Source: Mustelus asterias
Lineage: Eukaryota
Length of the DNA stretch: 64,000 nt
Direction of reading: 5' to 3'
NCBI RefSeq assembly: GCF_964213995.1
Contig: NW_027590119.1
Coordinates: 2,480,001 to 2,544,000, forward strand
Part shown: positions 1 through 46,936 of the stretch, in pieces
How positions within the stretch are numbered: the first letter of the stretch is position 1
Layout: every line of letters starts with the position of its first letter
The notes under the pieces: model-generated
The model's input: the letters and a program-made list of their open reading frames with translations, nothing else
What the model was told of the DNA's origin: nothing
Database searches by the model: none
Translations under genes and position numbers: made by a program

Positions 1-301
1 CTTGACTAAAACCTTTAAACCCTACGGGGTGCTAACAGTGTGGACGTTGAGCGGATATTTCCTCTTGTGCAGTATTGTAGTGTACTGGATATGTCTCAGA
101 GTGTATATATCTGGGCTCTTGGTTCTGCGCCTGTTTCCAATGCTGTTGTACTGTCCACGGGAGGCCGCTCTCTGATAACTTACCGAACAACGTGGCCTCC
201 TTTTGCAGAAAGTGACTATTTGCCAATATGAAAATGGGCGGAGAATGGGCGGGATAGGGCCTGGGCGGGATTGTGGTCGGTGCAAACCCGATGGGCCGAA
301 T

Positions 302-459
302 CCAAAAGAGAAAACGCTGGAAAATCTCAACTTTGACAAAGGGTCATCTGGACTTGAAACGTGAGCGCTTTTCTCAGATGCCGCCAGACCTGCTGAGATT
401 TTCCAGAATTTTCTCTTTTGGTTTCAGATTCCAATGTCCGCAGTAATTTGCTTTTATCA
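302..459. mobile_element. Short fold-back element, probably a Penelope-like terminal fragment, inserted in a CR1 3' tail
   Basis: Inverted repeat ccaaaagagaaaacgctggaaaatctca ... tgagattttccagaattttctcttttgg; exact 11-bp TSD atgggccgaat at 291-301 and 460-470; same family as 11758-11900. Confidence 0.7.
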
Positions 460-558
460 ATGGGCCGAATGGCCACCTTCTTCGCTGTAGGATTCTATGA
501 TTCCACGAAGTTAAATCATGAAGACTTCGCACGCCCTGAATGAGAAATGTCCAACAGT

Positions 559-613
559 GTTTTTGCCCGGTTTCGATATGGGGATCTTTTGCATGTGATG
601 CGAACGTGATAAC
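559..613 (-). pseudogene. tRNA-Val(CAC) pseudogene interrupted by a CR1 insertion (unit resumes at ~2170)
   Basis: Plus strand gtttttgcccggtttcgat...gcatgtgatgcgaacgtgataac matches the reverse complement of vertebrate tRNA-Val and runs directly into a CR1 tail. Confidence 0.8.
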
Positions 614-2168
614 ATAGAACATAGAACATAGAACATTACAGCGCAGTACAGGCCCTTCGGCCCTCGATGTTGCGCCGACCAGTGGGACCAATCTAAAGCC
701 CCTCTAATCTACACTATTCCAATATCATCCATATGTTTATCCAATAACCACTTGAACGCTCTCAACGTTGACGAGTCCACCACTGCTGCAGGCAGGGCAT
801 TCCACGCCCTTACTACTCTCTGAGTAAAGAACCTACCTCTAACATCTGTCCTATATCTCTCACCCCTCAATTTAAAGCTATGTCCCCTCGTGCTAGCCAA
901 CACCATCCGAGGAAAAAGGCTCTCACTATCCACCCTATCTAATCGTCTGATCATCTTGTGTGCCTCTATTAAGTCACCTCTTAACCTTCTTCTCTCGAAC
1001 GAAAACAACCTCAAGCCCCTCAGCCTTTCCTCATACGATATTCCCACCATACCAGGCAACATCCTGGTAAATCTTCTCTGCACCTCCACATCTTTCCTAT
1101 AATACGGCGACCAGAACTGTACGCAATACTCCAAATGCGGCCGCACCAGAGTTTTGTACAGTTGCAGCATGACCTCTTGGCTCCGAAACTCAATCCCTCT
1201 ACCAATAAAAGCTAACACACCGGACACCTTCTTAACAACCCTATCAACCTGGGTGCCAACTTTCAGGGATCTATGCACGTGGACACCCAGATCCCTCTGT
1301 TCATCCACACTACCAAGTATCTTACCATTAGCCCAGTACTCTGTATTCATGTTACTCCTTCCAAAGTGAATCACCTCACACTTTTCCGCATTAAACTCCA
1401 TTTGCCATCTCTCAGCCCAGCTCTGCAGCTTATCTATGTCCCTCTGTAACCTGCCACTTCCCTCCGCACTGTCTACAACTCCACCGACTTTAGTGTCATC
1501 CGCAAATTTACTAAACCATCCTTCCACGCCCTCATCCAAGTCATTAATAAAAATGACCAGCAGCAGTGGCCCCAAAACAGATCCTTGCGGTACACCACTA
1601 GTAACAGAACTCCAGGATGAATATTTCCCATCAACCACCACCCTTTGCTTTCTTACAGCTAGCCAATTCCTGATCCAAACCACAAATCACCCTCAATCCC
1701 ATGTGTCCGTATTTTCTGCACAAACTTACCATGGGGAACCTTATCAAACGCTTTGCTGAGATCCATATACACCAAATCAACCGCTTTACCCTCATCCACC
1801 TCTTTGGTCACCTTCTCAAAGAACTCAATAAGGTTTGTGAGGCACGACCTACCCTTCACAAAACCGTGCTGACTATCCCTAATCAAATTATTCCTTTCTA
1901 GGTGATTATAAATCCTATCTCTTAGAATCCTTTCCAATACTTTGCCCACAACAGAAGTAAGGCTCACCAGTCTATAATTACCAGGGTTGTCCCTACTCCC
2001 CTTCTTGAACAAGGGGACAACATTTGCTATCCTCCAGTCTTCTGGCACTGTTCCTGTAGACAATGACGACACAAAGATCAAAGCCAAAGGCTCTGCAATC
2101 TCCTCTCGAGCCTCCCAGAGAATCCTAGGATAAATCCCATCCGGCCCAGTGGACTTATCTATTTTTAC
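611..2168 (-). mobile_element. CR1 LINE, 5'-truncated (RT and C-terminal region)
   Basis: ORFs 709-1683 and 1659-2324 contain [31 protein letters not shown] and NYRxVSLTSVVGK; (ATAGAAC)n tail at 611-634. Confidence 0.95.
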
Positions 2169-3064
2169 CGTGACATTACATGCAGAGCTGACAGCAGACA
2201 GCAGGTAATCGGCCTCTCTGCAATGTTCAACTGCGCTGCGCTGCTTCAGATGCCAATGGAGAGGCTGAGGGCCCATGTCACTTAATTCAAGAAGAAAACC
2301 GGTACTTTCAACCTGCTTTCTCAACTTACCTTGAACATCAAAATTTAAAAGCGTTTGTCTGGCAAATATCTAAGTGACCAATGATTTCTGCTCATTCATT
2401 AATGCATCATTCTCAACTTTCTTCGAATAATCTCGAACAATTATACTCAGTATTTGTTTCGTTAGTCAATATGTAATATCAATATATTATTTAACACATG
2501 TCCTCATTATCTTTCAAAGGAAGACATTGAAGTATCTTTTAATTATACTTGTGCCTTTTTTATTATGGGTGTGAAATATTCAGGCGCATAACTTCCGTCC
2601 ATCTATTGGAAAGTCCAGTAGATCCGCAGTGAATCTCGATTTCCTCATCTGTCTGAGATTTGTTTTCGATTTCTACGTTATGAAGAAGTATTTTATAAAA
2701 TAGATTCTTCTGGGAAATGTGCGCCACTCCCTCTACTTCACTTACAGTATCACTTTTGTCTGTCCTTTTGAGCCGAAACTACTGTTGGACATGTTTCAGG
2801 TGACTATGTTAATCTGCACCTATAAACCCTTTTATTCTGTTGTAACTTGAACGAGATGCTAATGTGTGCACGTTGTCAAAATGGAAAAGTTTCTTTCTTG
2901 TCAGTGCGTCAAAAATATTCTGCATTTCTTATTTTACAGACAGCATTTGAGGGCGAAATCTGAGCAAAGATAATATGGCTGCAACATCAAGATACGGATA
3001 ATGTTCAGCAACAAACTGAAATCATACAAATTTCCCTCACCCGACAGAAAAAATCTCAAAGGAT

Positions 3065-3136
3065 GTGTCCGCTCGTTTTCGAACCGGGTACAGATGACGT
3101 GCTCAGCGAACACATTAACCACTACATTACCGAAAC
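3065..3136 (-). pseudogene. tRNA-Val pseudogene (degenerate anticodon arm)
   Basis: Minus strand GTTTCGGTAATGTAGTGGTTAATGTGTTCGCTGAGCACGTCATCTGTACCCGGTTCGAAAACGAGCGGACAC; A and B boxes recognisable, stems broken. Confidence 0.8.
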
Positions 3137-4110
3137 AAGTGACAGCATAGCACCGCCAACTGGCCTGATTACAACGTTCAACTCCACTGTGTTGCTGCAA
3201 GTTCCAATGGTTAGATTGAGAGACCATCTCAACTTATCCTGTACTTCATAATTAAAAACAGTTCGTCCAGCAAATGTCTAAGGGAGCAATGATTTCTGCT
3301 CAATCATCAATGCACCATTCTCCTCTTCGGTCGAATAATTTCAACCTGTTATCTCCAGTATTCGTTCGTTATTCAACATTTAATATCAATACATTTATTT
3401 AACACAGGTGTCCCCATTCTGGATTGAACATCTCTGAAATATACAACGTTGAATTGCAAACACTGACTGACCAATATAAGAAATCAAGTCACTGGGTAAT
3501 ACAAATGCCATGATGCTTATATGAGATTGGCCACAATCATCTTTTAAATGAAATCAAATATCTTTACAGGGAAGAGATTTAAGAATGATCTGTTAGTTAT
3601 ACTTGAAGCCTCTTTATTATGTGTGTGAAACATCCTGGCCCCTAAATCTCGTTCATCTATTGGAAGTTCAGCAGGTCCGTACTGATTCGCGATGTCCTCA
3701 TCTGCCTGAGTGGTTTTTCCTATTTATTTGTTATGGCGAACTATTGTTTTTCAAGATTCTTCTGAGAAATGTGCGCCATTTCCTCTAGTTCAGTTCCCGT
3801 GTCACTTGTGTCTGTCTTGTTGCGCACACACTACTATTAGGCACATTTCAGATGGTGATTAGCTATTTTAGTCTACACCTTTCAACTCATTAAATTCTGT
3901 TGTACACTGAACGAGATGCTAATTTGTGAACGTTGTCAAAACAAAAACGTTTCGTTCCCGTCAGTACCTGAGAAAATACTGCATTTCTTATTTTACAGAA
4001 AGCATTTGAGGTGGAGTTCAGAGCACAGATTAAAAAGGCTGTAACACTGAGATTCGTATAATGTCGTATAACAGAATTCACTCACCCTACATGGGAAAGA
4101 TTAACGAATG

Positions 4111-4182
4111 CTTTCTGCCCGGTGTCAAACCAGGAACCTTTCGCGTGTGAGGCGAACGTGATAACTACTACACTACAGAAAC
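4111..4182 (-). tRNA. trnaV-CAC: tRNA-Val(CAC), probably non-functional
   Basis: Minus strand GTTTCTGTAGTGTAGTAGTTATCACGTTCGCCTCACACGCGAAAGGTTCCTGGTTTGACACCGGGCAGAAAG; intact anticodon arm TTCGC-CTCACAC-GCGAA, but D-loop GG changed to AG and T-loop TTCGAAA to TTTGACA. Confidence 0.8.
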
Positions 4183-4746
4183 AACTGACACCGCTGTCTC
4201 GCCAATTGGCCTAACTACAATGTTCAACTCCACTGTTTTGCAGCAGGTTCCAATGGTTAGACTGAGAGCCCATGTCACTAAAGGAAAGAACACATCCGTG
4301 ACTGTCAACCTGATATCCCAACATATCTTGTACTTCATAATTAAAACAAGTTCATCCGGCAAATGTTTAAGGGAGCAATGATTTCTGCTTTATCATCAAT
4401 GCATCATGCTCATCTTCGGTCGAATAATTTCAACCAGTTGTAGCCAGTATTTGTTTGTTATTCAACATTTAATATCAATACGTTTATTAAACACATATGT
4501 CCACATTCTCAGTTGAATATCTCTGAAATATACAACATTCAATTGTAAACATGACTGACCAACAAAAGAAATCGAGTCACTGGGTAATACACATGCCATG
4601 GTGCTTCTTTGAGAAAGACTACAATCGTCTTTTCGACGAAATCAAGTATCTTTCAAGGCAAGAGATTTGAGGACGATCTGTTGGTTATACTTGATCCTCT
4701 TTATTCTGTGTCTGAAATATTCTGGCGCCTAAATCTCGTTCATCTA

Positions 4747-5500
4747 AGAACATAAGAACTATGTTAGAAGAACTAGGAGCAGGAGAAGGCCATTTGGCCC
4801 CTCGAGCCTGCTCCGCCATTCAATAAGATCATGGCTGATCTTTTCATGGACTCAACTCCACCTACCGCTCCGCTGACCATAACCCTTAATTCGTTTGCTG
4901 TTCAAAAATATATCTATCCTTGCCTTAAAAACATTCAATAAGGTAGCCTCAACTGATTCACTGGGCAGGGAATTCCACAGATTCACAACCCTTTGTGTGA
5001 AGAAGTTCCTCCTCATTCCTAAATCTGTTTCCCCTTATTTTGAGGCTATGCCCCCTAGTTCTAGTTTCAACTGCCAGTGGAAACAACTTCACTTCCCTGC
5101 TTCTATTTTATTTATTTCCTTCATAATCTTACGTGTTTCCATAAGATTTCCCCTCATTCTTCTGAACTCCAATGAGTATAGCCCCAGTCTACTCTGTCTC
5201 TCCTCATAAGCCAACCCTCTCAACTCCGGAATCAACCTAGTGAATCTCCTCTGCACCCCCTCCAGTGCCAGTATATCCTTTCTCAAGTAAGGAGACCAAA
5301 ACTGTACACAGTACTCTAGGTGTGGCCTCACCAGCACCTTATACAGGTGCAACATAACTTCGCTGTTTTTAAACTCCAACCTCTAGCAATGAAGGACAAA
5401 ATTCCATTTGCCTTCTTAATTACCTGCTGCACCTGCAAACCAACTCTTTGAGATTCTTGCACAAGGATATCCAAATCCCTCTGCACAGCAGTATGCTGCA
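4747..5500 (-). mobile_element. CR1 LINE 3' fragment inserted in a tRNA repeat unit
   Basis: ORF 5089-5379 (LVRPHLEYCVQFWSPYLRKD); (AAGAACAT)n tail; the flanks rejoin as ctcgttcatct-ttggaagtcc of the repeat unit. Confidence 0.93.
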
Positions 5501-5946
5501 ATCTGTTGGAAGTCCAGAAGGTCCGCACTGATTCTCGATTTCCTCATTTGCCTGAGTAGTTTTTCCTCCTTCTTCATCCTGTGGAAAAAAATCAAAAAGA
5601 TGCTTGAGGGAAATGTGTGCCATTTCCTCTAGTTCAGTTCCAGTGTCAATTATGTCTGTTTTTGCGCACACTATATTATTAGGGATGTTTCAGATGGTGA
5701 TTAACTATGTTAGTCTGCACCTCTCGACCCATTAACTTCTGCAGTGCACTGAACGAGATGCTAATGGAAAAGTTCCTTTCCTGTCAGTGCGTCAAAACAT
5801 TCAGCATTTCTTATTTTGCAGAAAACAATTGAGGTCGAGTTCAGAGCAAAGATAATATGGCTGTAATATCGAGATTCGGATAATGTTGAGCAACCAGTTA
5901 AAATCATGCATATTTCCCTCACCCTGCATGAGAAAGTTTAACGAAT

Positions 5947-6017
5947 GTTTTGCTCAGTTCCGGAGCGGGGACATTTCGTGTGTTAGGCGAACGTGATGAT
6001 CATGACACTACAGAAAC
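5947..6017 (-). pseudogene. tRNA-Val(AAC) pseudogene
   Basis: Minus-strand anticodon arm TTCGC-CTAACAC-ACGAA; 5' end GTTTCTGTAGTG; degenerate B box. Confidence 0.8.
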
Positions 6018-7027
6018 ACGTGATAGCGTATCGTGCCCAGTTTGCCTGACGACAATGTTCAACTCCACTGTGATGCTGCAGTTTCTAATGGTTAGATTGA
6101 GAGCCCAGATCACTTAATCCAAGAACACATCCACTAATTTCAACCTGAGTTTTCAATTTATCTTGAACTTCAAAATTAAAAAGCGTTGTCTAAGGGAGCA
6201 ATTACTTTTTCGCATTCATTAAATCATCATTGTCATCTTTGTTCGAATAATCGCAACAAAGTGTGCTCGGTATTTGTTTCGTTGTTCAATATTAAATATC
6301 AACACATTATTTATGTCCTCATTATGAATTGAATATCTCTTAAATTGAATATCACTGAATTGCAATCATAACTGACTAACAAAAAGGATTCGAAACACCG
6401 GGTAATACAGATCGCGTGGTGCTTACTTGAGATTGACCAAAGACAGCTTTTAACCAATTCAACTCTTATTAAAAGGAAGAGATTGAAGAATTATCTGTTA
6501 GTGATATTTGAGCCTTTTCTTATTATGGGTGTCAAACATTCAGGCGAATAAATTCTGGCCACCGATAGGAAAGTCCAGTAGATCCGCACTGAGTCTCGAT
6601 TTCCTCGTCTATCTAGGTGGTTTTTCATTTTTATTTGATATGAGGAACGAGTTTTTAAAAAGATTCTTCTGGAAAATGTGCGCCATTTTCTCTAGTTCCG
6701 ATACAGCATCACTCGTGTCTGCATTTTTGGGTACACACTACCATTGGAGATGTTTCAGGTAGAGATCAACGATGTTAATCTGCACCGACAACCCCATTAA
6801 ATTCTGTTGTCGACGGAACGAGGTGCCGATATGTGCACGTTGTCAAAATAGGAGCGCTTCTTGCCTGTCAGTGCGTCAAAAAGAAACCAGCAGTTCTGAT
6901 TTTGCAGGCCGAGGCCGAGGTCAGAGAAAAGATAAAATGGTTGTAACATCGAGATTCGGATCACGTTCAGCAACAAGCTGAAATCACTCAGATTTCCCTC
7001 ACCCTGCATGAGGAAGATTAAAAAAAT

Positions 7028-7353
7028 GTTTCTGCCTGGTTTTGAAGCGGAGACATTTTGCCCTCTTTTTAGGTCAAACCAAATAAACAAACTCAGATTA
7101 AGTCGGGACAAAGTAAAAGGGGCAGCTCCCCAAAAGGAGGGGGAACAGCCCGAACAGAAATCAAAGTACAAAGGAAACTTAAAAACATCAAATTAAAATG
7201 TGATTATTAGGGTCGATAACGCACCCCAAACCCTGCGGTGCCCAACGGGCGCGGAAGGCGTCAACCGCGCCCGTGGACACTGCATGCTCCCTCTCCAGGG
7301 ACACCCGGCCGCGCGGAGACATTTTGCGTGTTAGGCGACCTCACGACAGGAAC
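7028..7353 (-). pseudogene. tRNA-Val(AAC) pseudogene split by a Tx1-type insertion
   Basis: 3' half at 7028-7061; anticodon (CTAACAC) and partly deleted 5' half at 7313-7353; oligo-T terminator (plus-strand A-run 7020-7026) just downstream. Confidence 0.85.
7062..7312 (-). mobile_element. 5'-truncated Tx1-clade (L1 group) non-LTR retrotransposon, 3' end
   Basis: Exact 15-bp TSD gcggagacattttgc at 7047-7061 and 7313-7327; minus strand reads GRVSLEREHAVSTGAVDAFRARWAPQGLGCVIDPNNHILI* (stop 7188-7190), resembling Tx1 ORF2 C-termini; T-rich 3' UTR ending AAAAAGAGG. Confidence 0.8.
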
Positions 7354-8380
7354 AAGTGACAGTGTTGCGTCGCCAATTGACCTGACTAAAATGTTCACAT
7401 GTACTGTATTGCTGCCAGTTCCAATGGTTAGATTGAGAGCCCATGACAATAAAGACAAGAACACATCCGTCACTTTCAACCTGATATCTCAACTTATCTT
7501 GCACTTCATTATTAAGAAGAGTTAGTCCGGCAAATGTCTCAGGGAGAAATAATTTCTCCTCAATTATTAATGCAGCATTCTCATCTTCCATCGAATAATT
7601 TCAACCAGTTATATCCAGTATTAGTTCGTTATTCAACATTTAACATCAGTACATTTATTTTTACACAGATGTCCTCATTCTGAATTGAGTATCTCTGAAA
7701 TATAAAACATTGAATTGCAAACATGACTGACTAACAAAAGAAATCGAGTCACTGGGTAATACACATCGCATGGTGCTTATTTGAGATTGACGACAATCAT
7801 CTTTTAAACGAAATCAAACATCTTTCAAGGGATCAGATTTAAGAATGATCTGTTAGTTATACTTGATCCGTCTTTATTCTGTGTGTGAAATATTCTGGCA
7901 CCTAAATCTCGTTCATTATTTGAAGTCCAGCAGCTCCGCACTGATTCGCAATTTCATAATCTGCCTGAGTGGTTTTTGCTCTTCCTTTATCATGAGGAAC
8001 AATTTTAAAAAGATGCTTCTGGGAAATGTGCGCCATTTCCTCTAGTTCTGTCACAGTGTCACTTGCGTCTGTCTTTTTGCGCAAACAATACCATTCGGCA
8101 CGTTTCAGATGCTGATTAACTATGTTCGCCCGCACCTTTCAACCCATTGAATTCTGTTGTCCACTGAAAGGAATGCTAATTTTTGCACATTGTCAAAATA
8201 GAAACGTTTCTTTCCTGTCGGTGCGTCAAAACATTCTGCATTCCTTATTTTAGAGAAAGCATTTGAGGTCGAGTTCAGAGCAAAGATAATATGGCTGCAA
8301 CATCGAGATTCGTATAATGCTGTGCAACCAACTGAAACCATACACATTTCCCTCACTCCACATGAGAAAGTTGAATGAAC

Positions 8381-8452
8381 GTTTCTGCGTGGTTTTGATC
8401 TCAGAATCTTTTGCGCGTTCGGCGCACTTGATAACCACTACACTACAGAAAC
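8381..8452 (-). pseudogene. tRNA-Val(AAC-derived) pseudogene
   Basis: 5' GTTTCTGTAGTGTAGTGGTTATCA intact; anticodon loop CGAACGC and T arm degenerate. Confidence 0.8.
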
Positions 8453-9452
8453 AAGTGACAGCCCTACACCCCCAATTTGCCCGACTACAATCTTCATCTT
8501 CACTGTGCTGCTGTTGGCTCTCATGGTTAGATTGAAAGCCCATGTCATTTAATCCAAGAACACGGCCGGTACTTTCAACCTGATTTCTCTAATTATCTTG
8601 AACTTCAAAATTAAAACACGTTCTTCCGGCAAATTCTAAAGGAGCAAAGATTTCTCCTCATTCATTAAATCATCATTGTCATCTTCCTTCGAATAATCTC
8701 AACCAATTGTGCTCAGTACTTGTGTCGTTATTCAATATTAAATATCAATCCAATTTTAACACATGTCCTCATTATGAATTGATTATCTCTGAAATTGCAT
8801 ATCGCTGAATTACAAACTTAACTGACCAACAAAAGGAATCGAGTCATCGGGTAATACAGATCCCATGGTACTGATTTGAGATTGACCACAGACAGCTTTT
8901 AAACGAAGTCAAATATTTTTAAAAGGAAAGATTGAAGAATTAACTGTTAGTGTTACTTGTGCCTTTTTTATCATGGGGTGTGAAACATTCAGGCGCATAA
9001 ATTCCGGCCATCTATAGGAAAGTCCACCAGATCCGCACTGAATCTCGATTCCCTCATCTGTCAGTGTGGCTTTTCCTTTTTTTGATATGAGGAACGATTT
9101 TTAAAAAGATTATGTTGGGAAATGTGCACCATTTCCTCCAGTTCAGTTATTTTGATTCCATACCATTAGATATGTTTCAGATGGAGATTAACGATGTTAG
9201 TTTGCACGTATAACCTCATTAAATTCTGTTGCAGACTGAACGATGTGCCAGTATGTGCACGTTGTCAAAATAGAAACGCTTCCTTCCTGTCAGTGCGTCA
9301 AAAAGAAACCAGAATTTCTGATTTTGCAGAAAGCCTTTGAGGCCGAGGCCAGAGGAAAGTTAAAATGCTGTAACATCGAGGTGCAGATAATGTTCACAAC
9401 AAGCTGAAATCATACAGATTTCCCTCACCCTACATGACGAAGAATAAAAAAT

Positions 9453-9523
9453 GTTTTAGCTTGGTTTTGAACCGGGGCCTGTCGCGTCTTAGGCGAATGT
9501 GATAACGACTACACTACAGAAAC
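9453..9523 (-). pseudogene. tRNA-Val-derived copy with AAG anticodon (probable pseudogene)
   Basis: Minus-strand arm TTCGC-CTAAGAC-GCGAC; T-loop GGTTCAAAACC; oligo-T terminator at 9446-9451. Confidence 0.75.
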
Positions 9524-11418
9524 AAATAACATAATCGCATCAATTGACCTGACTACAATGTTCAACTCCACTGTGTTGCTGTCAGTTCCAATGGTTAAAT
9601 TGAGAGCCCATGACACTAAACAGAATAACACATCCGTCACTTTCAACCTGGTATCTCAACTTATCTTGCATTTCATAATTAAAAAGAGTTCATCCGACAA
9701 ATGTCAAAGACAACAATGATTTCTGCTCAATCATTCATGCATCATTCTCAGCTTCCTTCGAATAAGTTCAACCAGTTATATCCAATATGTGTTCGTTATT
9801 CAACTTTTAACATCGGTACATTTATTGAACACAGATGTCCTCATTCGGAATTGAATATCTCTTAAATATACAACATTGAATTGCAAACATGACTGACCAA
9901 CAAAAGAAATGGAGTCACTGGGTAATACACATGCTTATACGAGATTGACCACAAACATCTTGTAAACGAAATCAAATATCTTTCAAGGGAAGAGATTGAA
10001 GACTAATCTGTTAGTTATACTTGATCCCTCTTTATTTTGTGTCCGAAACATTTTGGCGCCTAAATCTCGTTCCTCTATTGGAAGTCGAGCAGGTCCGCAC
10101 TGATTCATGATTTCCTCATCTGTCTGAATGGTGTTTGCTCTTTCTTTATCATGAGGAACAATTTTTTAAAAGATGCTTCTGGGAAATGTGCGCCATTTCC
10201 TCTAGTTCTGTTACAGTGTCACTTACGCCTGTATTTTTGTGCAAACAATACCATTCGGCATGTTTCAGATGTTGATTAACTATGTTCGTCCGCAACTTTC
10301 AACACACTCAATTCTGTTGTATACTGAAAGAAATGCTAATTTTGGCACATTGTCAAAATAGAAACGTTTCTTTCCTGCCGGTGCGTCAAAACATTCCGCA
10401 TTCCTTATTTTAGAGAAAGCATTTGAGGTCGAGGTCAGAGCAAAGATGATATGGATGTAACGTCGAAATTCATATAATGTTCAGCAACCGACTGAAACAA
10501 TCTAAGAACACATCCGTACTTTCAAGCTGATTTCTCAATTTATCTTGAACTTCAACATAATATAGCGTCGTCCGGCAAATGTCTCAAGCAGTGATGATTT
10601 TTCCTCATTTATTAAATCATCATTGTCATCTTGCTTCGAATAATTTCAACCAATTGTGCTCAGTGTTTGTTTCCTTATTCAATAGCTAATATCAATACAT
10701 TATTTAACACATATGTCCTCATTATGAATTTAGTATCTCTGAAATTGAATATCACTGAATTGCAAACGTAACTGATCAACAAAAGCAGTCGAGTCACCGG
10801 GTAATACAGATCCCATGAATGCTTATTTGGGATTGACAATAGTCAGCCTTCAAACAACGTCAACTATAATTAAATGGAAGAGATTTTACAATTATCTGTT
10901 AGTTTTGCTTGAGCCTTTTTCATTATGGGTGTGAAACCGTCAGGCGCATAAATTCCGGCCATCTATTGGAAAGTCCAGTAGTTCCGCAGTGAGGCTCGAT
11001 TTCCTCATCTGTCTGAGTGTTTTTTTCCCTCTTTCTTTGTTGTGAAGAACGATTTTTAAAAAAGATTCTTCTGGGAGATGTGCGCAATTTCCAATAGTTC
11101 ACTTACAGTATCACCTGTATCTGTCTTTTTTGACATACAATATCAGGCATGTTTCAGATGGTAATTAACTATGTTAGTCTGCACGTCTCAACCCATTAAA
11201 TTATTTTCTGGACGGAACGAGTTGCGAATATGTGGACAAACAACAGAGAGGTTTCTTTCCTGTGGCCGAAAACACTGCATTTCTGATTTTCCGAAACGCA
11301 TTTGACGCCGAGGTCAAAGTTAACATAACATGAACGTAACATCGGATTCTCATGATGTTGAACAATGAACTTAGATCATGCAGACTTCGCTCAGGCTTGA
11401 TGAGAAAGATCCAACAGT

Positions 11419-11490
11419 GTTTCTGCCCGGTTTCGGACCAGGCAGCTTCCGCGTGTGAGGCGAACGTGGTAACCACTACATTACAGAAAC
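11419..11490 (-). tRNA. trnaV-CAC: tRNA-Val(CAC), best-preserved copy but with a T-loop substitution
   Basis: Minus strand GTTTCTGTAATGTAGTGGTTACCACGTTCGCCTCACACGCGGAAGCTGCCTGGTCCGAAACCGGGCAGAAAC; acceptor stem GTTTCTG/CAGAAAC perfect; B box GGTCCGA instead of GGTTCGA. Confidence 0.8.
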
Positions 11491-11757
11491 AACTCACAGC
11501 CGACCACAGCAACTCAGCCTGTCTGCAATGTTCAACTGCGCTTTGTTGCTGCAGGTTCCAATGGTTGGACTGAGAGCCCTTGTCGCTTAATTCAGGAAGA
11601 TAACCATTAGTTTCAATCTGATTATTCAACTTATCCTGAACTTCAAACTTTAAAAGCGTTCGTCTGGCAAATATCTAAGGGAACAATGATTTCTGCTTAT
11701 TCATTATTGCATCATTCTCATCTTCCTTCCAATAATCTCAACCAATTGTAGTCAGTA

Positions 11758-11900
11758 AGAGAAACAAATTACTGCGGATGATGGAATCGGATACCAAAAG
11801 AGAAAATGCAAGAAAGCCTCATAAGTTTTGGCACCATCTGTGAGGAGAGAAAAGGGCTGACGTTTCGAGTCCAGATGACAGTTTGTCAAAGCGCATTGTA
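11758..11900 (-). mobile_element. Short Penelope-like terminal fragment (family of 302-459)
   Basis: Reverse complement of the 302-459 element; 15-bp TSD caattgta(g/c)tcagta at 11743-11757 and 11901-11915. Confidence 0.7.
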
Positions 11901-11952
11901 CAATTGTACTCAGTATTTGTTTGAATAATTAATATCAATGCATTATTGAACA

Positions 11953-13130
11953 GTTGATGTCATATACATGGATTTTAGTAAGGCCTTTGATAAGGTCCCC
12001 CATGGTCGGCGTATGATGAAAGTGAGGAGGTGTGGGATAGAGGGAAAGTTGGCCGATTGGATAGGTAACTGGCTGTCTGATCGAAGACAGAGGGTGGTGG
12101 TGGATGGAAAATTTTCGGATTGGAGGCAGGTTGCTAGCGGAGTGCCACAGGGATCAGTGCTTGGTCCTCTGCTCTTTGTGATTTTTATTAATGACTTAGA
12201 GGAGGGGGCTGAAGGGTGGATCAGTAAATTTGCTGATGACACCAAGATTGGTGGAGTAGTGGATGAGGTGGAGGGCTGTTGTAGGCTGCAAAGAGACATA
12301 GATAGGAGGCAAAGCTGGGCTGAAAAATGGCAAATGGAGTTTAACCCTGATAAATATGAGGTGATTCATTTTGGTAGGACTAATTTAAATGTGGATTACA
12401 GGGTCAAAGGTAGGGTTCTGAAGACTGTGGAGGAACAGAGAGATATCGGGGTTCATATCCACAGATCTCTAAAGGTTGCCACTCAAGTGGATAGAGCTGT
12501 GAAGAAGGCCTATAATGTGTTAGCTTTTATTAACAGGGGGTTGGAGTTTAAGAGCCGTGGGGTTATGCTGCAACTGTACAGGACCTTGGTGAGACCACAT
12601 TTGGAATATTGTGTGCAGTTCTGGTCACCTCACTATAAGAAGGATGTGGAAGCGCTGGGAAGAGTGCAGAGGAGATTTACCAGGATGCTGCCTGGTTTGG
12701 AGGGTAGGTCTTATGAGGAAAGGTTGAGGGAGCTAGGGCTGTTCTGTCTGGAGCGGATGAGGCTGAGGGGAGACCTAATAGAGGTTTATAAAATGATGAA
12801 GGGGATAGATAGAGTGAACGTTCAAAGACTATTTCCTCGGGTGGATGGAGCTAATACAAGGGGGCATAACTATAGGGTTCGTGGTGGGAGATACAGGAAG
12901 GATATCAGAGGTAGGTTCTTTACACAGAGAGTGGTTGGGGTGTGGAATGGACTGCCTGCAGTGATAGTGGAGTCAGACACTTTAGGAACATTTAAGCGGT
13001 TATTGGATAAGCGCATGGAGCACACCAGGATGATAGGGAGTGGAATAGCTTGATCTTGGTTTCACATAAAGCTCGGCACAACATCGTGGGCCGAAGGGCC
13101 TGTTCTGTGCTGTACCGTTCTATGTTCTAT
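11953..13130 (+). mobile_element. CR1 LINE 3' portion (open 361-aa RT C-terminal ORF)
   Basis: ORF 11968-13053 with [21 protein letters not shown] and FADDTK; (TTCTATG)n tail. Confidence 0.95.
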
Positions 13131-13335
13131 ATGTCTTCATTACGAATTGAATATATCTGAAATTGAATATCATAGAATTGGAAACATAACTGACCAACAG
13201 AAGGAATCGAGTCAGTGTGTAATGCAGATCGCAATTTTGAGATTGAATATAGTCATATTTTAAACAAAGCCAACTACATTTAAATGGATGAGATTCAAGA
13301 ATTATCTGTTCGTGACACCTGAGCCTATTTAACAG

Positions 13336-13636
13336 CCTAGCTGTTACTAGGGGGCTGTAGCTGTTACTAGGGGGCATAACTATAAGGTTCATGGTAGGAG
13401 ATATAGGAAGGATATCCGAGGTAGACTCTTTACACAGAGAGTGGTTGGGGTGTGGAATGGACTGCCTGCTGTGATAGCGGAGTCGGACACTTCAGGAACT
13501 TTCAAGCGGTTATTGGGTAGGCACATGGAGCACACCAGAATGATAGGGAGTGGGATAGCTTGATCTTGATTTCGGACAAAGCTCGGCACAGCATCGAGGG
13601 CCGAAGGGCCTGTACTGTTCTATGTTCTCTGTTCTA
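13336..13636 (+). mobile_element. Short CR1 3' end (same family as 11953-13130)
   Basis: Similar to 12850-13130; tagctgttactagggggc duplicated at the 5' junction; tatgttct tail. Confidence 0.9.
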
Positions 13637-13896
13637 TTTTATTATGGGCGTGAAACATTCAGACACATAAATCCCGGCCATCTATAGGAAAGTCCAGTAG
13701 ATCCGCACAGAGTCTTGATTTCCTCATTTAGCTGAATGGTTTTTCATATTTCGTTGTTACGAATAATGATTTTTTCAAAATATTTTTTTCTGGGAACCCT
13801 GTTCCATTTCCTCTAGTTCGCTTACAGAATCACTTGTGCCTGCCTTTTTGAGCATACAATACTATTAGACATGTTTCAGATGGTGATTAACTATGT

Positions 13897-14010
13897 TAGT
13901 CGTGTTGCTGGGTGAGTCAGTGTGTCCCAGACTGATAATAATAGTCATGTTGCTGGGCGAGTCTGTGTGTTCCGGATTGATAATAATCGTCATGTCGCTG
14001 GGGAGTCTCT
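13897..14010. repeat. 45-bp tandem repeat (~2.5 copies) at the array/TCR-V junction
   Basis: Unit tagtc(g/a)tgttgctggg(t/c)gagtc(a/t)gtgtgt...tgataataa. Confidence 0.8.
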
Positions 14011-14391
14011 GAGGCTGTTATTCTACATCCCATTTTTAAGTACGAGAGATCCATTCTGTAATTCATTACAGGAACGAGTGCCGTGGAGTCAGGATCCTTG
14101 GACTCGTCTGAGATAAAAGTCTGGAAGAACAGCCTTTAATTTTCTGCTATGTTACCTCCACTTCTGAGTACATCCTTCAGCTGGGTGTTAAATGTTCCGC
14201 GTTAAATTTTACCATATAAACCGCAGAATTTGTTTAGTCCCGAGATTTTCTAAACTCCTTCTTTGTGAATCTCAACAAGAACAGAAAAAAACTGTTAAAT
14301 GGACCTCACTAACTTTTTAAACCCGGGATCAAGCCATGCTCGCAGAAGGAAATTTAGTACATAAGAACATAGAGCTGTAAATACTCGCTGA

Positions 14392-14430
14392 GCTTTTTGA
14401 ACGGGGTTTTAGCTGTAATGTAACGCTGTG
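14392..14430 (-). promoter_or_regulatory. V(D)J recombination signal sequence, 23-bp spacer
   Basis: Minus strand directly after YYCAVR: heptamer CACAGCG (14430-14424), 23-nt spacer TTACATTACAGCTAAAACCCCGT, nonamer TCAAAAAGC (14400-14392); consensus CACAGTG / ACAAAAACC. Confidence 0.9.
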
Positions 14431-14723
14431 CCTCACTGCACAGTAATAGACCGCCCCGTCCTCCACAATGAGGGCGCTGATGTTGAGGTAACCATTCTGG
14501 TTAGACGTGTCAGAAGCCGCCAGATATCGTCCTGAAACTTTATTTTCTTTCAGTACTAATGTTTTGTTAATAATCCATCTTGGTGCCTGTGCCGAATTTT
14601 GCTGATACCATTGCATGTAGTCCATACTCTTCTCTGTATATTTACAATCTAACTGCACCGAATCCCCTTCTGACGCGGCCATTGTCACCGGTGACTGCGT
14701 TACTGGATCTGCACACAGTCCGC
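14431..14723 (-). CDS. TRAV: T-cell receptor alpha/delta-type variable (V) gene segment, V exon
   Basis: Pyrimidine tract and acceptor ttcacag (14730-14724), then phase-1 open exon (G)GLCA-DPVTQSPVTMAASEGDSVQLDC...MQWYQQ...LNISALIVEDGAVYYCAVR; conserved V-set Cys, Trp and DxAVYYC; 23-RSS follows. Leader exon not located; alpha versus delta not resolvable by eye. Confidence 0.88.
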
Positions 14724-15334
14724 CTGTGAAGGTCAGAAAGATCAGAAATATGTCTGACTGAATATCTTTCAGTGAATGAGAATGGACGGAGTCAGAGATT
14801 GTGAAAGAGAGAGTGAACCCAAGCTCTGCTCCGTTGATTGCAGCGTGTGAGTGAGTGCGTGTCAGTTTGTCTGTGTGGGTGTGATTGTGGGGAGGGGAAG
14901 GGGCAGTCTATTGTGACCTCACCACTCTACCATCCATACAGGCTCGAGTGATAATGTCACATGAGATTATGACACCTCACCACTTCCACCCTACCCCCAC
15001 CCCTACCCCCGCGTCCTCCACCTCCCCTCCGCATACCCAAAACCGGGCTTGAATCTGCCTCCCTCTTGTGACAAATGTTGGTGTTGCAAGTTCACATTTG
15101 GCTGTTGAGTCGATTCAGGGTTCACTCCAATATATGACAAGACGGAAATGCTGCCCATGAATTCTGAATTGGTGCTCTGTAAACACTATCTTTGTTACGT
15201 TTCCTATTTATATCGTAAAATGATGCTAAACGTGCGGACATCATTGCCAGAATTCTCTGTTCAAATCCTGGGTATGACCAAGTCGAGAGTACACCAAGAC
15301 TTTGGAAACAGTGCGGAGTTGGAGAAGCCGATTC

Positions 15335-18365: not shown

Positions 18366-18997
18366 GGTATCAGGAGGGGAGGACTTGCAGTCGGGAAACT
18401 GAAACCCAGCATCACATCAGGATCTGACAGAGCCACTCACTTTATCATAACCTGAATATCATTGGATTTTGAACATGGAAGGTAAGCACCGTTCACAGTG
18501 GGGAGAAACCGTACACGTTTTGTGTGTGTGGAGGAAGATTCAGCCAATTATCTGACCATTCAGAACATAAACACAACCACAACTTGTCGAAACCATGGAA
18601 TCGTGAGGATTGTGGGAAGGGATTCAATGTCTATTGGTGCTAGGAATTCATCGACAGTGCCACACTGGAGAGAGACGATGCACCGAGTCCCAGTGTGGGA
18701 AGGAATTCACTGAGTCAGTCCACACACTGACAAACTAGTGAGTTCACACCGGGGAGAGGCCATATACCTGTTCCAAAGGTGGGAAGGGATTCAGTCAGTT
18801 ATCCAACTTCGTGATACAACACAAGTCACTCTGGAGAGAAACCATTCACCTGCTCTAAGTGTGGGAAGGGATACATTCAGTAATCTGACTTACTGAGACA
18901 CCAGCAAGTTCACACTGGAGAGAGGCCGTTCTCCTGCTCGGTGTTTGGGATGAGTTTCAGTGATTCCTCCACCCTGCTGACACACCAGAACGTTCAC
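18366..18997 (+). pseudogene. C2H2 zinc-finger array pseudogene (gastrula zinc finger XlCGF-like)
   Basis: Acceptor ttcacag at 18365, ATG at 18475, about 6 degenerate fingers with HSGEKPY/HTGERPY/HTGERPF linkers and CGKGF motifs; in-frame stops, frameshifts and lost Cys residues. Confidence 0.88.
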
Positions 18998-24407: not shown

Positions 24408-27400
24408 GTATACAAAAAACGGGTGGAACTTGAATCACAGGGGGACCAATATCCTGGCCGGTAGGTTGGCTAAGGCTACTGGGGAGAATTTAAACTAGAT
24501 AGGTTGGGGGGAGGGGAGCTAGACGAGTTGACTAGGATCAAGGAACTAATTGATGGGGGGGAGGATGCAGGGGTAAGGGGAATTACAAAATTAATGGTAG
24601 AGGAGAGGGTGCAAGTGAATGAAGGCGGTAATTTAGATAAGGGAGTAGAGGGAGAGGGTGTTCGCGACTCATCAAAGCGGGTCCAGATAAAAGCTGGAAT
24701 AAGGACACTTTGCCTGAATGCACGAAGCATTCGGAACAAGGTAAATGAGTTGATGGTGCTAATCAGCACAAGTGGGTACGATCTAGTGGCCATTACAGAA
24801 ACGTGTCTGAAAGGTGACCAGGACTGGGAGATGAATATCCAGGGGTATCAGGCGTTTAGGAAGAATAGACAGGAAGGAAAAGATGGTGGGGTCGCGCTAT
24901 TAATAAGAGATAATATCAGGGTAGTACTGAGGGATGACATAGGCTCTGAGGAACAAAACGTGGAATCATTATGGGTAGAGATGAGGAATAGTAGAGGGAG
25001 AAAGACACTAGTAGGTGTGGTATAAACGCCCCCAAATAATAATGTTGAGGTAGGGAGGGCTATAAACAAGCAGATAAGGGATGTGTGTAAAAACGGAACG
25101 GCAATAATCATGGGGGACTTCAACATGCACATTGACTGGCAGACTCAAGTCGGTAAGGGTGGAATGGAGGAAGAGTTCTTAGAATGCTGTCGGGATAGTT
25201 TCCTTGAACAGCATGTTACGGAACCGACGAGGGAACGAGCTATTTTGGATCTGGTATTGTGTAACGAGGTAGGTAGAATTAAGGATCTTATTGTGAAGGA
25301 CTCTCTTGGGTCTAGTGACCACAATATGGTCGAATTTCTGATTCAGATGGAAGAGGAGAAAGTTTGGTCCCAAACCAGTGTTCTCTGTTTGAACAGAGGG
25401 AAATATGATAGGATGAGGGATGAATTGGCTAAGGTAGACTGGGAGAGCAGGCTGGCAGGTAGGATAGCTGAGGAACAGTGGAGGATTTTTAAGGAGATCC
25501 TTTTCAGTTCTCAGCAAAAATATATTCCAGCAAAAAACAAGGATTGTAAGAAAAGGGAGAACCAGCCGTGGATAACGAAGGAAATAAAGGAGAGTATTAA
25601 AATAAAAACAGCTGCGTACAGAGTGGCCAAAAATAGTGGAGAAACAAGTGATTGGGAAAAATTTAAGAAACAACAAAGAGAGACTAAGAAAGCGATAAAG
25701 AAAGGAAGGATAGACTATGAAGCTAGGCTAGCAATTAATATAAAAAATGATAGTAAAAGTTTTTATAAATATATAAAAAGGAATAGAGTGGCCAGAGTGA
25801 ATGTTGGACCCTTGGAGGACGAGAGGGGGGAGTCACTAGTGGGAAATGAGGATATGGCTGAGTCTTTAAATAAGTTTTTTGTGTCGGTCTTCACGGTGGA
25901 GGACACAAATAGTTTGCCAAATATTAACGATAGAGGGTTGGCAGCAGGAGAAATACTTAATACAATTAATGTTACCAGAGAGGCAGTGCTGGGTAGACTA
26001 ATGGGACTGAAGGTGGACAAGTCCCCGGGTCCGGATGGAATGCATCCCAGGGTATTGAAAGAAGTGTCAGAGGTAATAGTGGATGTGTTAGTGATTATTT
26101 ATCAAAACTCGTTGCATTCTGGGGTAGTGCCGGTTGATTGGAAAACGGCTAATGTTACGCCGCTGTTTAAAAAAGGAAGGAGATAAAAGGCGGGTAACTA
26201 TAGGCCGGTCAGCTTAACGTCTGTAGTAGGGAAAATGCTGGAATCCATTATTAAAGAGGAGATAGCAGGGCATCTGGATAGAAATGGTTCGATCAATCAG
26301 ACGCAGCATGGATTCATGAGGGGAAAGTCGTGCTTGACGAACATGTTGGATTTTTATGAAGATGTGACTAGGGCGGTTGATGGAGGAGAACCAGTGGATG
26401 CGGTGTTTTTGGATTTCCAAAAGGCATTTGATAAGGTGCCCCATAAAAGGCTGCTGAAGAAGATTAGGGCACACGGAGTTGGGGGTAGTGTGTTAAAGTG
26501 GATTGGGGACTGGCTATCCGACAGGAAGCAAAGAGTCGGAATAAATGGGTGTTTTTCCGGTTGGAGGAAGGTAACTAGTGGCGTGCCGCAGGGATCGGTA
26601 CTCGGGCCGCAACTGTTTACCATTTATATAGATGATCTGGAGGAGGGGACGGAGTGTAGGGTAACGAAGTTTGCAGACGACACAAAGATAAGTGGAAAAG
26701 TGAATCGTGTGGAGGACGGAGAAGATCTGCAGAGAGATTTGGACAGGCTGAGTGAGTGGGCGAGGATATGGCAAATGGAGTATAACGTTGATAAATGCGA
26801 GGTTATACACTTTGGAGGAAATAATAACAAATGGGATTACTATCTCAATGGAAACAAATTAAATCATGCTACCGTGCAAAGGGACCTGGGGGTCCTTGTG
26901 CATGAGACGCAAAAGCCCAGCCTGCAGGAACAACAGGTGATCAAGAAGGCAAATGGGATGTTGGCCTATATCGCGAGGGGGATAGAATATAAAAGCAGGG
27001 ATGTCTTCATGCACCTGTACAGGGCATTGGTGAGGCCGCAGCTGGAATACTGTGTGCAGTATTGGTCCCCTTATATGAGGAAGGATATATTGGCATTGGA
27101 GGGAGTGCAGAGAAGGTTCACCAGGTTGATACCGGAGATGAGGGGTTTGGATTATGAGGAGAGGCTGAGGAGATTGGGTTTGTACTCGTTGGAGTTTAGA
27201 AGGATGAGGGGGGATCTTATGGAGACTTATAAGATAATGCGGGGGCTGGATAGGGTGGAGGCAGAGAGATTCTTTCCACTTAGTAAGGAAGTTAAAACTA
27301 GAGGACACAGCCTCAAAATAAAGGGGGGTCGGTTTAAGACAGAGTTGAGGAGGAACTTCTTCTCCCAGAGGGTGGTGAATCTCTGGAATTCTCTGCCCAC

Positions 27401-27621
27401 TGAGGTGGTGGAGGCTACCTCGCTGAATATGTTTAAAGCGCGGATGGATGGATTCCTGATCGGTAAGGGAATTAAGGGTTATGGGGATCAGGCGGGTAAG
27501 TGGTACTGATCCACGTCAGATCAGCCATGATCTTATTGAATGGCGGGGCAGGCTCGAGGGGCTAGATGGCCTACTCTTGCTCCTATTTCTTATGTTCTTA
27601 TGTTCTTATGTTCTTATGTTC
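24408..27621 (+). mobile_element. Near full-length young CR1 LINE: ORF1 C-terminus plus complete ORF2 (APE endonuclease + RT) with two nonsense codons
   Basis: ORFs 24504-25025, 25083-26186 and 26235-27509 share one frame, broken only by TAA at 25023 and 26184; [36 protein letters not shown]; upstream LNHRGTNILAGR-like ORF1 esterase tail; (TATGTTCT)n tail. Confidence 0.95.
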
Positions 27622-32596: not shown

Positions 32597-33498
32597 TCAG
32601 GGTTTAATGAGTTGAAGAATTGCAGTCAGGGGATATTTCAGCAAATTTTTCAGCTGCTGTCTGAAGTGACTCTGTGTCACAGCATAAATTGCAGTGTTTG
32701 TACAGCAACTTGTGAGTTGCAGCATGAAGCCCAATTCCAGAACGAAATAATCTAACTTTACCGATTGATAGCCCGAATTATACAGCCGATTCAATATAGA
32801 ATAAAACATTAATGTCGACCATAAGAGGATGAAATTGGCTGAGATAACAAACAGTAAAATGATGGATTTCCTGCGACTCTCCATCTCTGGGTCTCTGGGA
32901 TCCTCCCCACTGCTGTGAGGCCGGAGTCTCCTGCGGGCTCTGCTGCTCACTAAAATGTGTCTGACGGTGAAAGCATTGAGCAGCAGAATAAGGACGAATG
33001 GGACACACGGGGTTAGGATGTGGTGGAGGAACTCGATTGTTACCCAGACCAGAGATTCCACAACATCCCCTGTGACATCACAAAACCAGGGGGCGTTCAC
33101 CAGCCGATATCCATTTAAAAACGTAAAATACCAGAAAATGTTTTTTAAACAGCTTAGCAGCGTCACTGTTGCCAGAACCACAGCCGCCGATTTCTCACTG
33201 CAATATTTACTTTTCAGCTTGGGGCAGCAAATGGCCACAAATCGATCAAAGGTGAAAGTGACGGTGAACCAGACAGAACAGTCAGTGGCTGCATAAAGCA
33301 GGATGGCGTGGATGTTACACACGGGGACCGACATCAGGAAATAAAACTGTTCCCAATAAACAATGGGAATGTGTCTCAATATCAGGTCGAGGATAACGAC
33401 CAGCAGATCCCCCACAGACATGGCCACCAGGTAACGTGTGACACATTGGGACAGACCACAATTTCTGCTCGTCAGAGTCACAACTGTGATTATGTTCA
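32597..33498 (-). CDS. Class A orphan GPCR, GPR139/GPR142-like, exon 2 (end of TM1 to TM7 and stop)
   Basis: Acceptor ttccttcctgacag then (G)TG AAC; YLVAMSVGDLL (TM2), TFDRFVAIC (DRY-type), TPCVPF (TM5), SCCTNTAIY (NPxxY-type), helix 8 SHFRQQL; open to TGA at 32597-32599. Confidence 0.93.
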
Positions 33499-33624
33499 CT
33501 GTCAGGAAGGAAATAAAGAATAAAATTAGATATGATTCAGGGGAAGAGGTTACCATTTTGAATGCGGATGGAATAAAAAAAAATTTGCACACACACCGAA
33601 TCGCTTAAATCTCTTTTTATGATA

Positions 33625-38787: not shown

Positions 38788-40647
38788 GTTACCGCTGTGC
38801 ATGCAGAGAGGCAGCGAGGCCCAGCTCCCTAACCCACTGTGCATGCAGAGAGGCAGCGAGGCCCACCTCCCTAACCCACTATGCATGCAGAGAAGCAGCG
38901 AGCACACCCTCACTACCCCATCGTGCATGCAGAGAGGCGGCGATACCCCCTCCCTAAACCACTGTGCATGCAGTGAGGAAGCGAGGCTCCCTCCCTACCC
39001 CAAAGTGCATGCAGAGTGGCAGCAAGGACCCCCTCCCTACCCCACTGTGCACGCAGAGAGGCAGCGAGAACCGCGCCCGATCCCACTGTGCATGCAGAGA
39101 GGCAGCGAGACCCTCACCCTACCCCACTGTCCATGCAGAGACGCAGCGAGGCCCCCCTCGCTACCCCACTCTGCATGCAGAGAGGCAGTGAGACCCCCTC
39201 CCTAACCCAATGTGCATGCAGAGAGGCATCAAGACTCCCTCCCTAATCCACTCTGCATGCAGAAGGACAGCGAGACCCCCTTTCCCAACCCACTGTTCAT
39301 GCAAAGAGGCCGTGAGAACCACTCCCTCCCACACTGTGCATGCAGAGAAGCAGCGAGACCCCCTCCGTAACTAAATGTGCATGCAGAGAGGCATCATGAC
39401 CCCCCTCCCTAATCCACTCTGCATGCAGAGAGGCAGCGAGGCCCCCTCCCTATACCACTGTCCATGCAGAGAGGCAGCAAGACCCCCTGCCCCACTATGC
39501 ATGAAGAAAGGCAGCGAAACCCCGTCCCTACCCCAGTGTGCATGTAGAGAGGCGGCGAGGCCCCCCTCCCTAACCCAGTGTGCATGCAGAGGAGCAGCGA
39601 CACCCCTCCCTACCCCACTGTGCATGTAGAGAGGCAGCGAGACACCCCTCCCTAACACACTGTTCATGCAGAGCGGCAGCGTGAACCGCTCCCTCCCCCA
39701 CTGTGCATGCAGAAAGGCAGCGAGACCCCCTCACTACCCCACTGTGCATGCAGAGAGGCAGTGAGTCCCGCCTCCCCAACGCACTGTGCATGCACAGTGG
39801 CTGCGAGACCGCCCTTCCCTACCCCACTGTGCATGCAAAGAGGCAGCTAAACCCCTCTCCCTACGCCAGTGGGCATGCAGAGAGGCAGCGATACACCCCT
39901 CCCTACCACACTGTCCATGCAGAGAGGCAGCAAGACTCCCTCCCTACCCCACTGTGAATGCAGAGAGGCAGCGAGGCCCCCTCCCTACCCCACATTGCAT
40001 GCAGAGAGGCAGCGATAACCCCTCCCTACCCCACTCTCCATGCAGAGAGGCAGCGAGGCCCCCTCCCTACCCCACATTGCATGCAGAGAGGCACTGAATC
40101 CCCCCTTCCCTACCCACCGTGCATGCACAGATGCAGCGAGGCGCCCGCCCTAACCCACTGTCCATGTAGAGAGCCATCGAGGCCCCCTCCCTACACCACT
40201 GTGCATCCAGTGAGGCAGTGAGACCCCTCTCTTCCCCACGGTGCATGCACAGAGGCAGCGACGCCCCCTCCCTATACCACTGTGCATGCAGAGAGGAAGC
40301 GAGATCCCACTCCCTAACTCACTGTGCATGCAGAAAGGCAGCGAGACCCCCTCCCTACCCCAGTGTGCATGCAGAGAGGCAGCGAGGCCCCCCTCCCTAC
40401 GCCACTCTGCACGCAGAGAGGCAGCGATACCCCCTCCCTAACCCACTGTGCATGCGGAGATGCAGCGAGGCCCCCTCCCCACCCCAATCTGCATCCAGAG
40501 AGGCATCGAGACTCCCTCCCTAACCCAATGTGCATGCAAAGAGGCATGGAGACCCCTTCCCTACCACACTGTGCATGCACAAAGGCAGCGAGACCTCCCT
40601 CCCTAACCCACTGTTCATGCAAAGAGGCCGTGAGATCCCCTCCCTAT
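38788..40647. repeat. 41-bp satellite, block 1
   Basis: Unit CCCCACTGTGCATGCAGAGAGGCAGCGAGACCCCCTCCCTA; about 45 copies. Confidence 0.97.
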
Positions 40648-45800: not shown

Positions 45801-46936
45801 ACAGAGGCAGTGAGGCCCCCTCCCTACCCCACTGTGCATGCAGAGAGGCAGCGATACCCCCTCACTACCGCACTGTGAATGCAGAGTGGCACCGAGGCCC
45901 CCCTTCCCTACTGCAATGTACATGCGCAGATGCAGCGAGGCGCCCTCCCGCACCCACTGTGCATGCAGAGAGGCAGCGAGGCCCCCCTCCCTACCCCACT
46001 GTGCATGCAGAGAGGCAGCGAGACCCCGCCGTACCTCACTTGCCTGCAGAGTGGCAGCGAGACCCCCTCCCTCCCCCAATTTGCATGCAGAGAGGCAGTG
46101 CGGCCCCATCCCTACCCATTGTGCATGCAGAGAGGCAGCGAGGCCCCATCCCTACCCCACTGTGCACGCAAAGAGGCAGCGAGGCTCCCTCCCTAACCCA
46201 CTGTACATGCAGAGAGGAAGCGAGCCTCCCTCCCTAACCCACTGCGCATGCAGAGAGGCAGCGAGACTCCCTCCCTAACCCACTGTGCATGTAGAGAGGT
46301 AGCGAAGCCCCCTCCATACCCTACTGTCAATGCAGAGCGGCAGCAAGGACCCCTCCCTATCCCACTGTGCATGCAGAGAGGAAGCAAGGCCCCATTCCCT
46401 ACCACACGGTGCATGTAGAGAGGCAGCGATACGCCCTACCGAACCCACTGTGCATGCAGAGAGGCAGCGAAGCCCCCTCCTCACTCTAAACAGCGTGCAG
46501 AGAGGCAGCGAGACGCCCTCCCGAACCCACTGTGCATGCACAGAGGCAGCGAGACAATCTCCCTACCCCACTGTGCATGCAGAGAAGCAGCGACGCCTCC
46601 TCCCTCCCCCACTGTTCATGCAGAGACCCCCTCCTATCCCACTGTGAATGCACAGAGGCAGCGAGACCCTTTCCATAACCCACTGTGCGTACAGAGAGGC
46701 AGCGAGGCCCCCTTCCTGCCCCACTGTGCATGCAGAGAGGCAGCTAGGTCCCCTCCCTAACCCAATTTCCAAGCGGCGAGGCAGCGAGACACCCTCCCTC
46801 CCCCACTGTGCACGCAGAGAGGCAACGGGACCCCCTCCCTAACCCACTGTGGATGCAGAGAGGCCGCGAGACCTACTCCCCACCCCACTGTGCATGAAGA
46901 GAGGCAGCGAGACCCCTTCCCTACCCCACTGTGCAT
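42859..46936. repeat. 41-bp satellite, block 2 (higher-order structure)
   Basis: About 99 copies; diagnostic variant monomers recur at ~43190, 44711, 45571 and 46471. Confidence 0.97.

Follow-up and report, generated by a model that had tools for sequence, protein, structure and literature searches.

A 5′-truncated retrotransposon copy of the Tx1 clade inside a tRNA-Val pseudogene of Mustelus asterias: likely a chance landing

Does a retrotransposon copy lying within tRNA-Val sequence of Mustelus asterias belong to a family that seeks out tRNA-Val, or did it land there by chance? We analysed a window of 64 kb (the whole stretch of DNA under study), which contains a decayed tandem array of tRNA-Val units of ~1.08 kb (507–13901, minus strand). 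The array comprises 9,179 bp of array DNA, its units are about 70–87% alike and it is broken by six interruptions. tRNAs are called in it at 4110–4182 and 11417–11490 (ARAGORN and Rfam) and at 9452–9523 (Rfam). One of the interruptions splits a tRNA-Val(AAC) unit; a preliminary description had read it as a Tx1-type element inside a tRNA-Val gene, and as a candidate for a tRNA-Val-targeting family.

The interruption is an insert of 251 bp (7062–7312, minus strand), flanked by an exact direct repeat of 15 nt, GCGGAGACATTTTGC, whose copies lie at 7047–7061 (element 3′ side) and 7313–7327 (element 5′ side), both on the minus strand. This 15-mer occurs twice in the whole 64-kb window and not once on the opposite strand, and the repeat does not extend on either side. 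Based on alignment (numbering by hand), the target-site duplication (TSD) corresponds to tRNA positions 39–53, that is the 3′ strand of the anticodon stem, the variable loop and the 5′ strand of the T-stem, and both of its ends coincide with stem-loop boundaries of the tRNA. Alignment with the array units also shows the insert to be co-oriented with them. Its minus strand reads GRVSLEREHAVSTGAVDAFRARWAPQGLGCVIDPNNHILI (7310–7191) and a stop codon (7190–7188), which are the last 40 codons and stop of ORF2 (7188–7310). A T-rich 3′ UTR of 126 nt follows (7062–7187, minus strand), with an A5-GAGG end terminating in AAAAAGAGG; a GC hairpin is predicted in it by RNA folding, without a shuffle control. 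The insert and its exact TSD, the placement of the TSD on the tRNA, the shared orientation and the peptide followed by a T-rich UTR had all been described beforehand and stand as described.

Contigs of the same family run past 7313 into further ORF2 codons in all four sequencing runs surveyed (see below), and the window copy is therefore 5′-truncated. The base at 7313 also matches the upstream sequence of the family, which leaves a microhomology of 1 nt at the truncation point. The marks of target-primed reverse transcription (TPRT) are thus present: a 15-bp TSD, 5′ truncation and an intact 3′ end. An assembly artefact or a chance repeat is ruled out by the unique pair of 15-mers together with a contig of an empty site, and a SINE by the ORF2 codons that the insert carries. 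No second Tx1-like copy is found in the 64-kb window, where the insert is the only Tx1-like match.

Concerning the identity of the element, the peptide shares 85–93% identity with the C-terminal ends of four database proteins, all of which stop at the same residue; two of these four are long enough to carry a CCHC motif further upstream. It is also 73% identical to the C-terminus of the protein P0005. P0005 in turn matches ORF2 of Tx1L from Xenopus laevis (YTX2_XENLA, P0010), the type element of the Tx1 clade, with 41% identity over 617 aa (422 bits); the match includes the corresponding C-terminal stretch, and ORF2 of Tx1L ends in the same C-terminal region. Against human L1 ORF2p, P0005 reaches only about 30 bits (phmmer). 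A tree built from 23 related proteins (20 of them unnamed besides P0005, and no named outgroup) places P0005 with Tx1L, three unnamed proteins and a turtle protein in one clade with support 100/100; P0014 groups with the turtle protein. The assignment is transitive, through P0005, because the 40-mer alone gives no match to Tx1L by direct BLASTP (E=49). By this route the peptide, the alignment and the tree support the earlier Tx1 identification, ORF2 grouping with Tx1L and not with L1 or CR1. The 251-bp copy itself lacks the APE endonuclease, the reverse transcriptase (RT) and the CCHC zinc motif. P0005 shows partial matches to RVT_1 and zf-RVT, both under the curated cut-offs; in P0008, which is more distant, Exo_endo_phos and RVT_1 pass the curated cut-off and zf-RVT falls below it. 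A ray protein shares a short stretch of 80% identity with P0005, and an origin of the family in cartilaginous fishes is plausible on this similarity.

The insertion did hit tRNA-Val(AAC) sequence; the host, which had been taken for a tRNA-Val gene, is a pseudogene with no complete cloverleaf and not a working gene. Its 5′ half through the anticodon loop lies at 7328–7353 (minus strand) and carries a 12-nt deletion in the D arm, based on the alignment of eight array units; its 3′ end (positions 54–73) lies at 7027–7046 (minus strand). When the insert and one copy of the TSD are removed in silico, the restored unit still has the 12-nt gap in its D arm and a mutated T arm, and ARAGORN makes no call on it at default, -ps90 or -ps70. 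At default ARAGORN calls two of the eight aligned tRNA-Val units. Its -ps70 call set (225 calls, mostly spurious) was discarded.

The empty site is seen in one contig of run X15, which joins 7046 to 7313, skipping 266 nt, with no indel listed across the D arm. It is not the pre-insertion allele, because 4 differences are listed in the 85 nt to the right of the joint; likely, this contig comes from a close paralogue or orthologue which is empty and shares the D-arm deletion. Since an empty homologue appears to share this deletion, the host unit was probably already dead at the time of insertion.

Other copies of the element were surveyed in the contigs of 4 of 19 listed runs, which represent four organisms and four studies and may not be from the species of the window. 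Contigs were matched at a threshold of 85% identity, and they show presence, not absence. The element is matched by 3,604, 702, 1,780 and 2,494 contigs in the four runs, with many variant positions: the family is multi-copy, diverged and common to several species. Loose ends also occur at 7105 in three runs and at 7105/7115 in X7, representing variants whose 3′ UTR differs in its final part, and the family therefore has subfamilies. A copy-number bracket taken from depth (about 170–5,400) was set aside, as summed contig depth is no copy number. Uncovered bins (X1: 7025–7039 and 7325–7400; X7: 6980–7024 and 7325–7400) and the absence from X15 of a filled 5′ junction were not taken as evidence. 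Outside these runs, pattern matches to other copies were confirmed for 0/131 and 0/175 in JGI metagenomes, 0/18 in viral contigs and 0/30 in prokaryote genomes. The runs X5 and X11 (‘hot springs metagenome’) contain 0.39 and 0.25 of the sampled repeat words, likely through contamination.

The 3′ flanks of these other copies bear most directly on targeting. A family has been counted as target-specific when more than 20% of its flanks are the target repeat (PMC4494074). Among the loose ends listed (24, of 24 + 586 in total), 24 contigs of X15 leave the window sequence at 7058, with a median loose length of 209 and an agreement (taken here as the mean majority share, an assumed definition) of 0.41, and 7 contigs of X1 leave it at the same base, with a median loose length of 123 and an agreement of 0.46; X6 and X7 have no 3′-end entry among those listed. 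In simulations, random flanks give an agreement of 0.36 (± 0.01) for X15 and 0.46 for X1, and flanks made up entirely of tRNA-Val give 0.75 and 0.78. When the majority strings are compared with six tRNA-Val 3′ halves, they match at 6–11/30 positions (X15) and 4–9/30 (X1), with a random mean of 7.5–7.6. Were tRNA-Val to make up 20% of the flanks, so low a match would have P=0.04 (X15) and 0.11 (X1), and at a share of 30% P=0.002 and 0.04. The 31 listed 3′-flank contigs, from two organisms, thus speak against a tRNA-Val share of 20% or more. No independent insertion at the same tRNA-Val nucleotide is found either: one of the eight aligned units of the window is filled, and there is no second case among the loose ends listed. 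The summed depth at 7040–7054 is 0.01–0.07% of that at 7070–7084 in 4/4 runs, a comparison which leaks and weighs little because a junction of the element with a better-preserved tRNA-Val is only 77–87% like the window, around the 85% threshold. A tRNA-Val-targeting family, as put forward in the preliminary description, is thus not borne out: within the listed contigs (24 of X15, 7 of X1) the flanks of other copies are mixed, as at random sites, and not tRNA-like, and the element sits in a pseudogene, within an array that other LINEs have hit as well. It is unlikely that tRNA-Val is the dominant target of the family, and the window copy is likely a chance landing of an ordinary Tx1 copy, not the mark of a new tRNA-seeking family.

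Our preferred explanation, to which we give a probability of roughly 70%, is that the insert is a 5′-truncated copy of a multi-copy retrotransposon of the Tx1 clade, likely placed by TPRT into a tRNA-Val unit that was probably dead, and that its family likely has no more than a short motif at the junction, without specificity for tRNA-Val. TPRT is the established basis for the steps proposed here. A full-length source element would have supplied the APE endonuclease that nicked the strand opposite tRNA positions 38/39, and reverse transcription would have begun at the 3′ end of the RNA, possibly aided by a 4-nt match of GCAA to the target. It would have stopped early, after 251 nt; a second nick 15 nt away would have given rise to the TSD, and the 5′ end would have been joined through the 1-nt microhomology. 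The resulting copy, having no promoter, endonuclease or RT, would be inert.

The GCAA match draws attention to the junction. The first four nucleotides of the TSD in element sense are GCAA (7061–7058). In X15 as in X1 the contigs break after these four bases of the TSD, at 7058, and in the majority strings of both the next bases are CA (element sense). With two further bases fixed, the random agreement would rise to 0.40 for X15, where 0.41 is observed, and to 0.49 for X1, where 0.46 is observed. The copies seem to share GCAA(CA) at the junction, as the tail of the element or as a short target motif; alternatively, an aligner length effect may account for the break at this base. The three best-preserved array units have GCG, not GCA, at tRNA positions 39–41, and GCA is found in three decayed units, the host among them. 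If the motif is indeed shared, the site would have become usable through decay of the pseudogene.

The same observations could be accommodated by a preferred target that is no tRNA, for instance a different transposon whose site starts GCAA(CA), comparable to the cases of Tx1L and Tx1-Mar; the window copy would then have landed off target, at a look-alike site produced by decay of the pseudogene. We consider this unlikely, though it is the best placed of the alternatives. It would agree with the grouping of P0005 with Tx1L, whose relatives prefer other transposons (PMC4494074), with the same break base and the CA start of the majority strings in two organisms, and with the agreement in X15, which at 0.41 lies above the purely random value (0.36 ± 0.01) and could also come from a shared non-tRNA target. 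However, over 30 nt the agreement lies close to the random value, which would leave any long shared target to a minority of copies, and the majority strings match no repeat above shuffles in the window, the only sequence searched for this (best matches 19 and 20/30; shuffled mean about 19).

Less probable still is a minor subfamily of the Tx1L group that cuts the body of tRNA-Val at 38/39 and 53/54, the boundaries of the anticodon loop and stem and of the T-stem and loop, with the window copy as one of its members. The TSD covers exactly positions 39–53, the insert runs in the same direction as the tRNA, and the listed loose ends together with the 85% threshold leave room for a tRNA-Val share under about 15–20%. 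Precedents exist among elements of the clade, to which Dewa and Mutsu also belong. Zebrafish Dewa (spacer of tRNA-Leu), Keno (U2) and Mutsu (5S rDNA) are target-specific at multicopy small-RNA loci (PMC3706591), and Keno is placed in the Tx1 clade (PMC4494074). Dewa, however, sits in a spacer and not in a tRNA body, and the window offers one insertion in a pseudogene body, with mixed flanks in the listed contigs of other copies. The case against such a subfamily is that it would be known from a single insertion, with no Tx1 pieces in the other seven aligned units, that its target here is without a D arm, and that the listed 3′ flanks are not tRNA-like, no tRNA string being present at 7059–7062 among the loose ends listed. 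A clean TSD inside tRNA-like sequence is not in itself evidence of targeting. In the openly accessible literature searched, no Tx1 family inside tRNA-Val and no APE-type LINE with specificity for tRNA coding sequence was found.

The other interruptions of the array serve to gauge how unusual a landing in a tRNA body is. The six comprise four CR1-type pieces, one insert of 143 bp and the Tx1 copy, and their positions in the unit are scattered; we take the LINE pieces to be CR1 on the basis of RT motifs and a (TTCTATG)n tail. One CR1-type piece (614–2172, minus strand) interrupts the D arm of a different tRNA-Val unit (543–613 and 2173–2190), co-oriented with it, with no TSD and about 4 nt lost, and is 23–24% identical to Tx1 proteins. 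It is a second LINE within a tRNA body of the array, and thus an internal control. As tRNA bodies make up 593 of the 9,179 array bases (6.5%), the probability that at least one of six interruptions falls in a tRNA body is 0.33, and that of two is about 0.05: one is ordinary and two are borderline. That tRNA bodies in arrays are general LINE hot spots, whether through open Pol III chromatin or through the local structure of the DNA, and with no sequence-specific endonuclease, would fit 2/6 interruptions by two different LINE clades within 6.5% of the array DNA (P about 0.05), but we regard it as very improbable, the numbers being small and noticed post hoc and both units being pseudogenes. The 143-bp insert (11758–11900) lies in the array spacer, shows an apparent duplication of ~14 bp of unit positions 325–339 and is related to 331–453.

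Several further features are found elsewhere in the window. An ORF at 14329–14907 (minus strand) encodes an Ig V-set domain (Pfam, E 1e-15) ending in YYCAVR and is followed by a heptamer-like CACAGCG, a 23-nt spacer and a nonamer-like TCAAAAAGC; it resembles a solitary V segment next to the tRNA array, presumably of T-cell receptor type. A 335-aa open frame at 32597–33604 (minus strand) matches rhodopsin-family GPCRs (7tm_1, E 7.5e-18). Decayed C2H2 zinc-finger repeats with a period of 84 bp, stops and a frameshift are located at 18661–18990. A 41-bp minisatellite forms three arrays within or beside LINE pieces (38795–40646, 42859–46936 and 54658–55179, with 45, 100 and 13 copies, respectively), and the LINE continuation at 40646–42857 is 86% like 25386–27601.

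Compared with known systems, the element is closest to Tx1L, which inserts into the piggyBac-type Tx1D (PMC4494074), whereas no such fixed target is seen for the window family, represented in the window by 251 bp only. The same source describes the crocodilian families Tx1-Mar, Tx1-8_Crp, Tx1-4_AMi and Tx1-9_AMi as vertebrate Tx1 families which prefer other repeats without being strictly specific for them; the window element is likened to these by description, and no preferred repeat is identified for it. Elements that do use tRNA genes differ in their machinery. Dada-tV DNA transposons insert in the anticodon arm of tRNA-Val in the orientation opposite to the tRNA (PMC8869645) and have a DDE transposase, unlike the LINE described here; a Dada transposon is ruled out by the ORF2 C-terminus and by the orientation of the insert, which is the same as that of the tRNA. 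NeSL-1_TV, LIN15_SM and LIN25_SM are NeSL-related LINEs specific for tRNA genes (PMC4640811), with a machinery that differs from that of the window element.

If a tRNA-Val-specific subfamily did exist, it would add a target to those of the Tx1 clade and would represent an APE-type LINE with specificity for the coding region of a tRNA; its APE endonuclease, with a conserved multicopy site, would be useful for the study of how APE specificity changes. As the evidence stands, the locus represents little beyond one further truncated copy of a Tx1 element in a decaying tRNA array.
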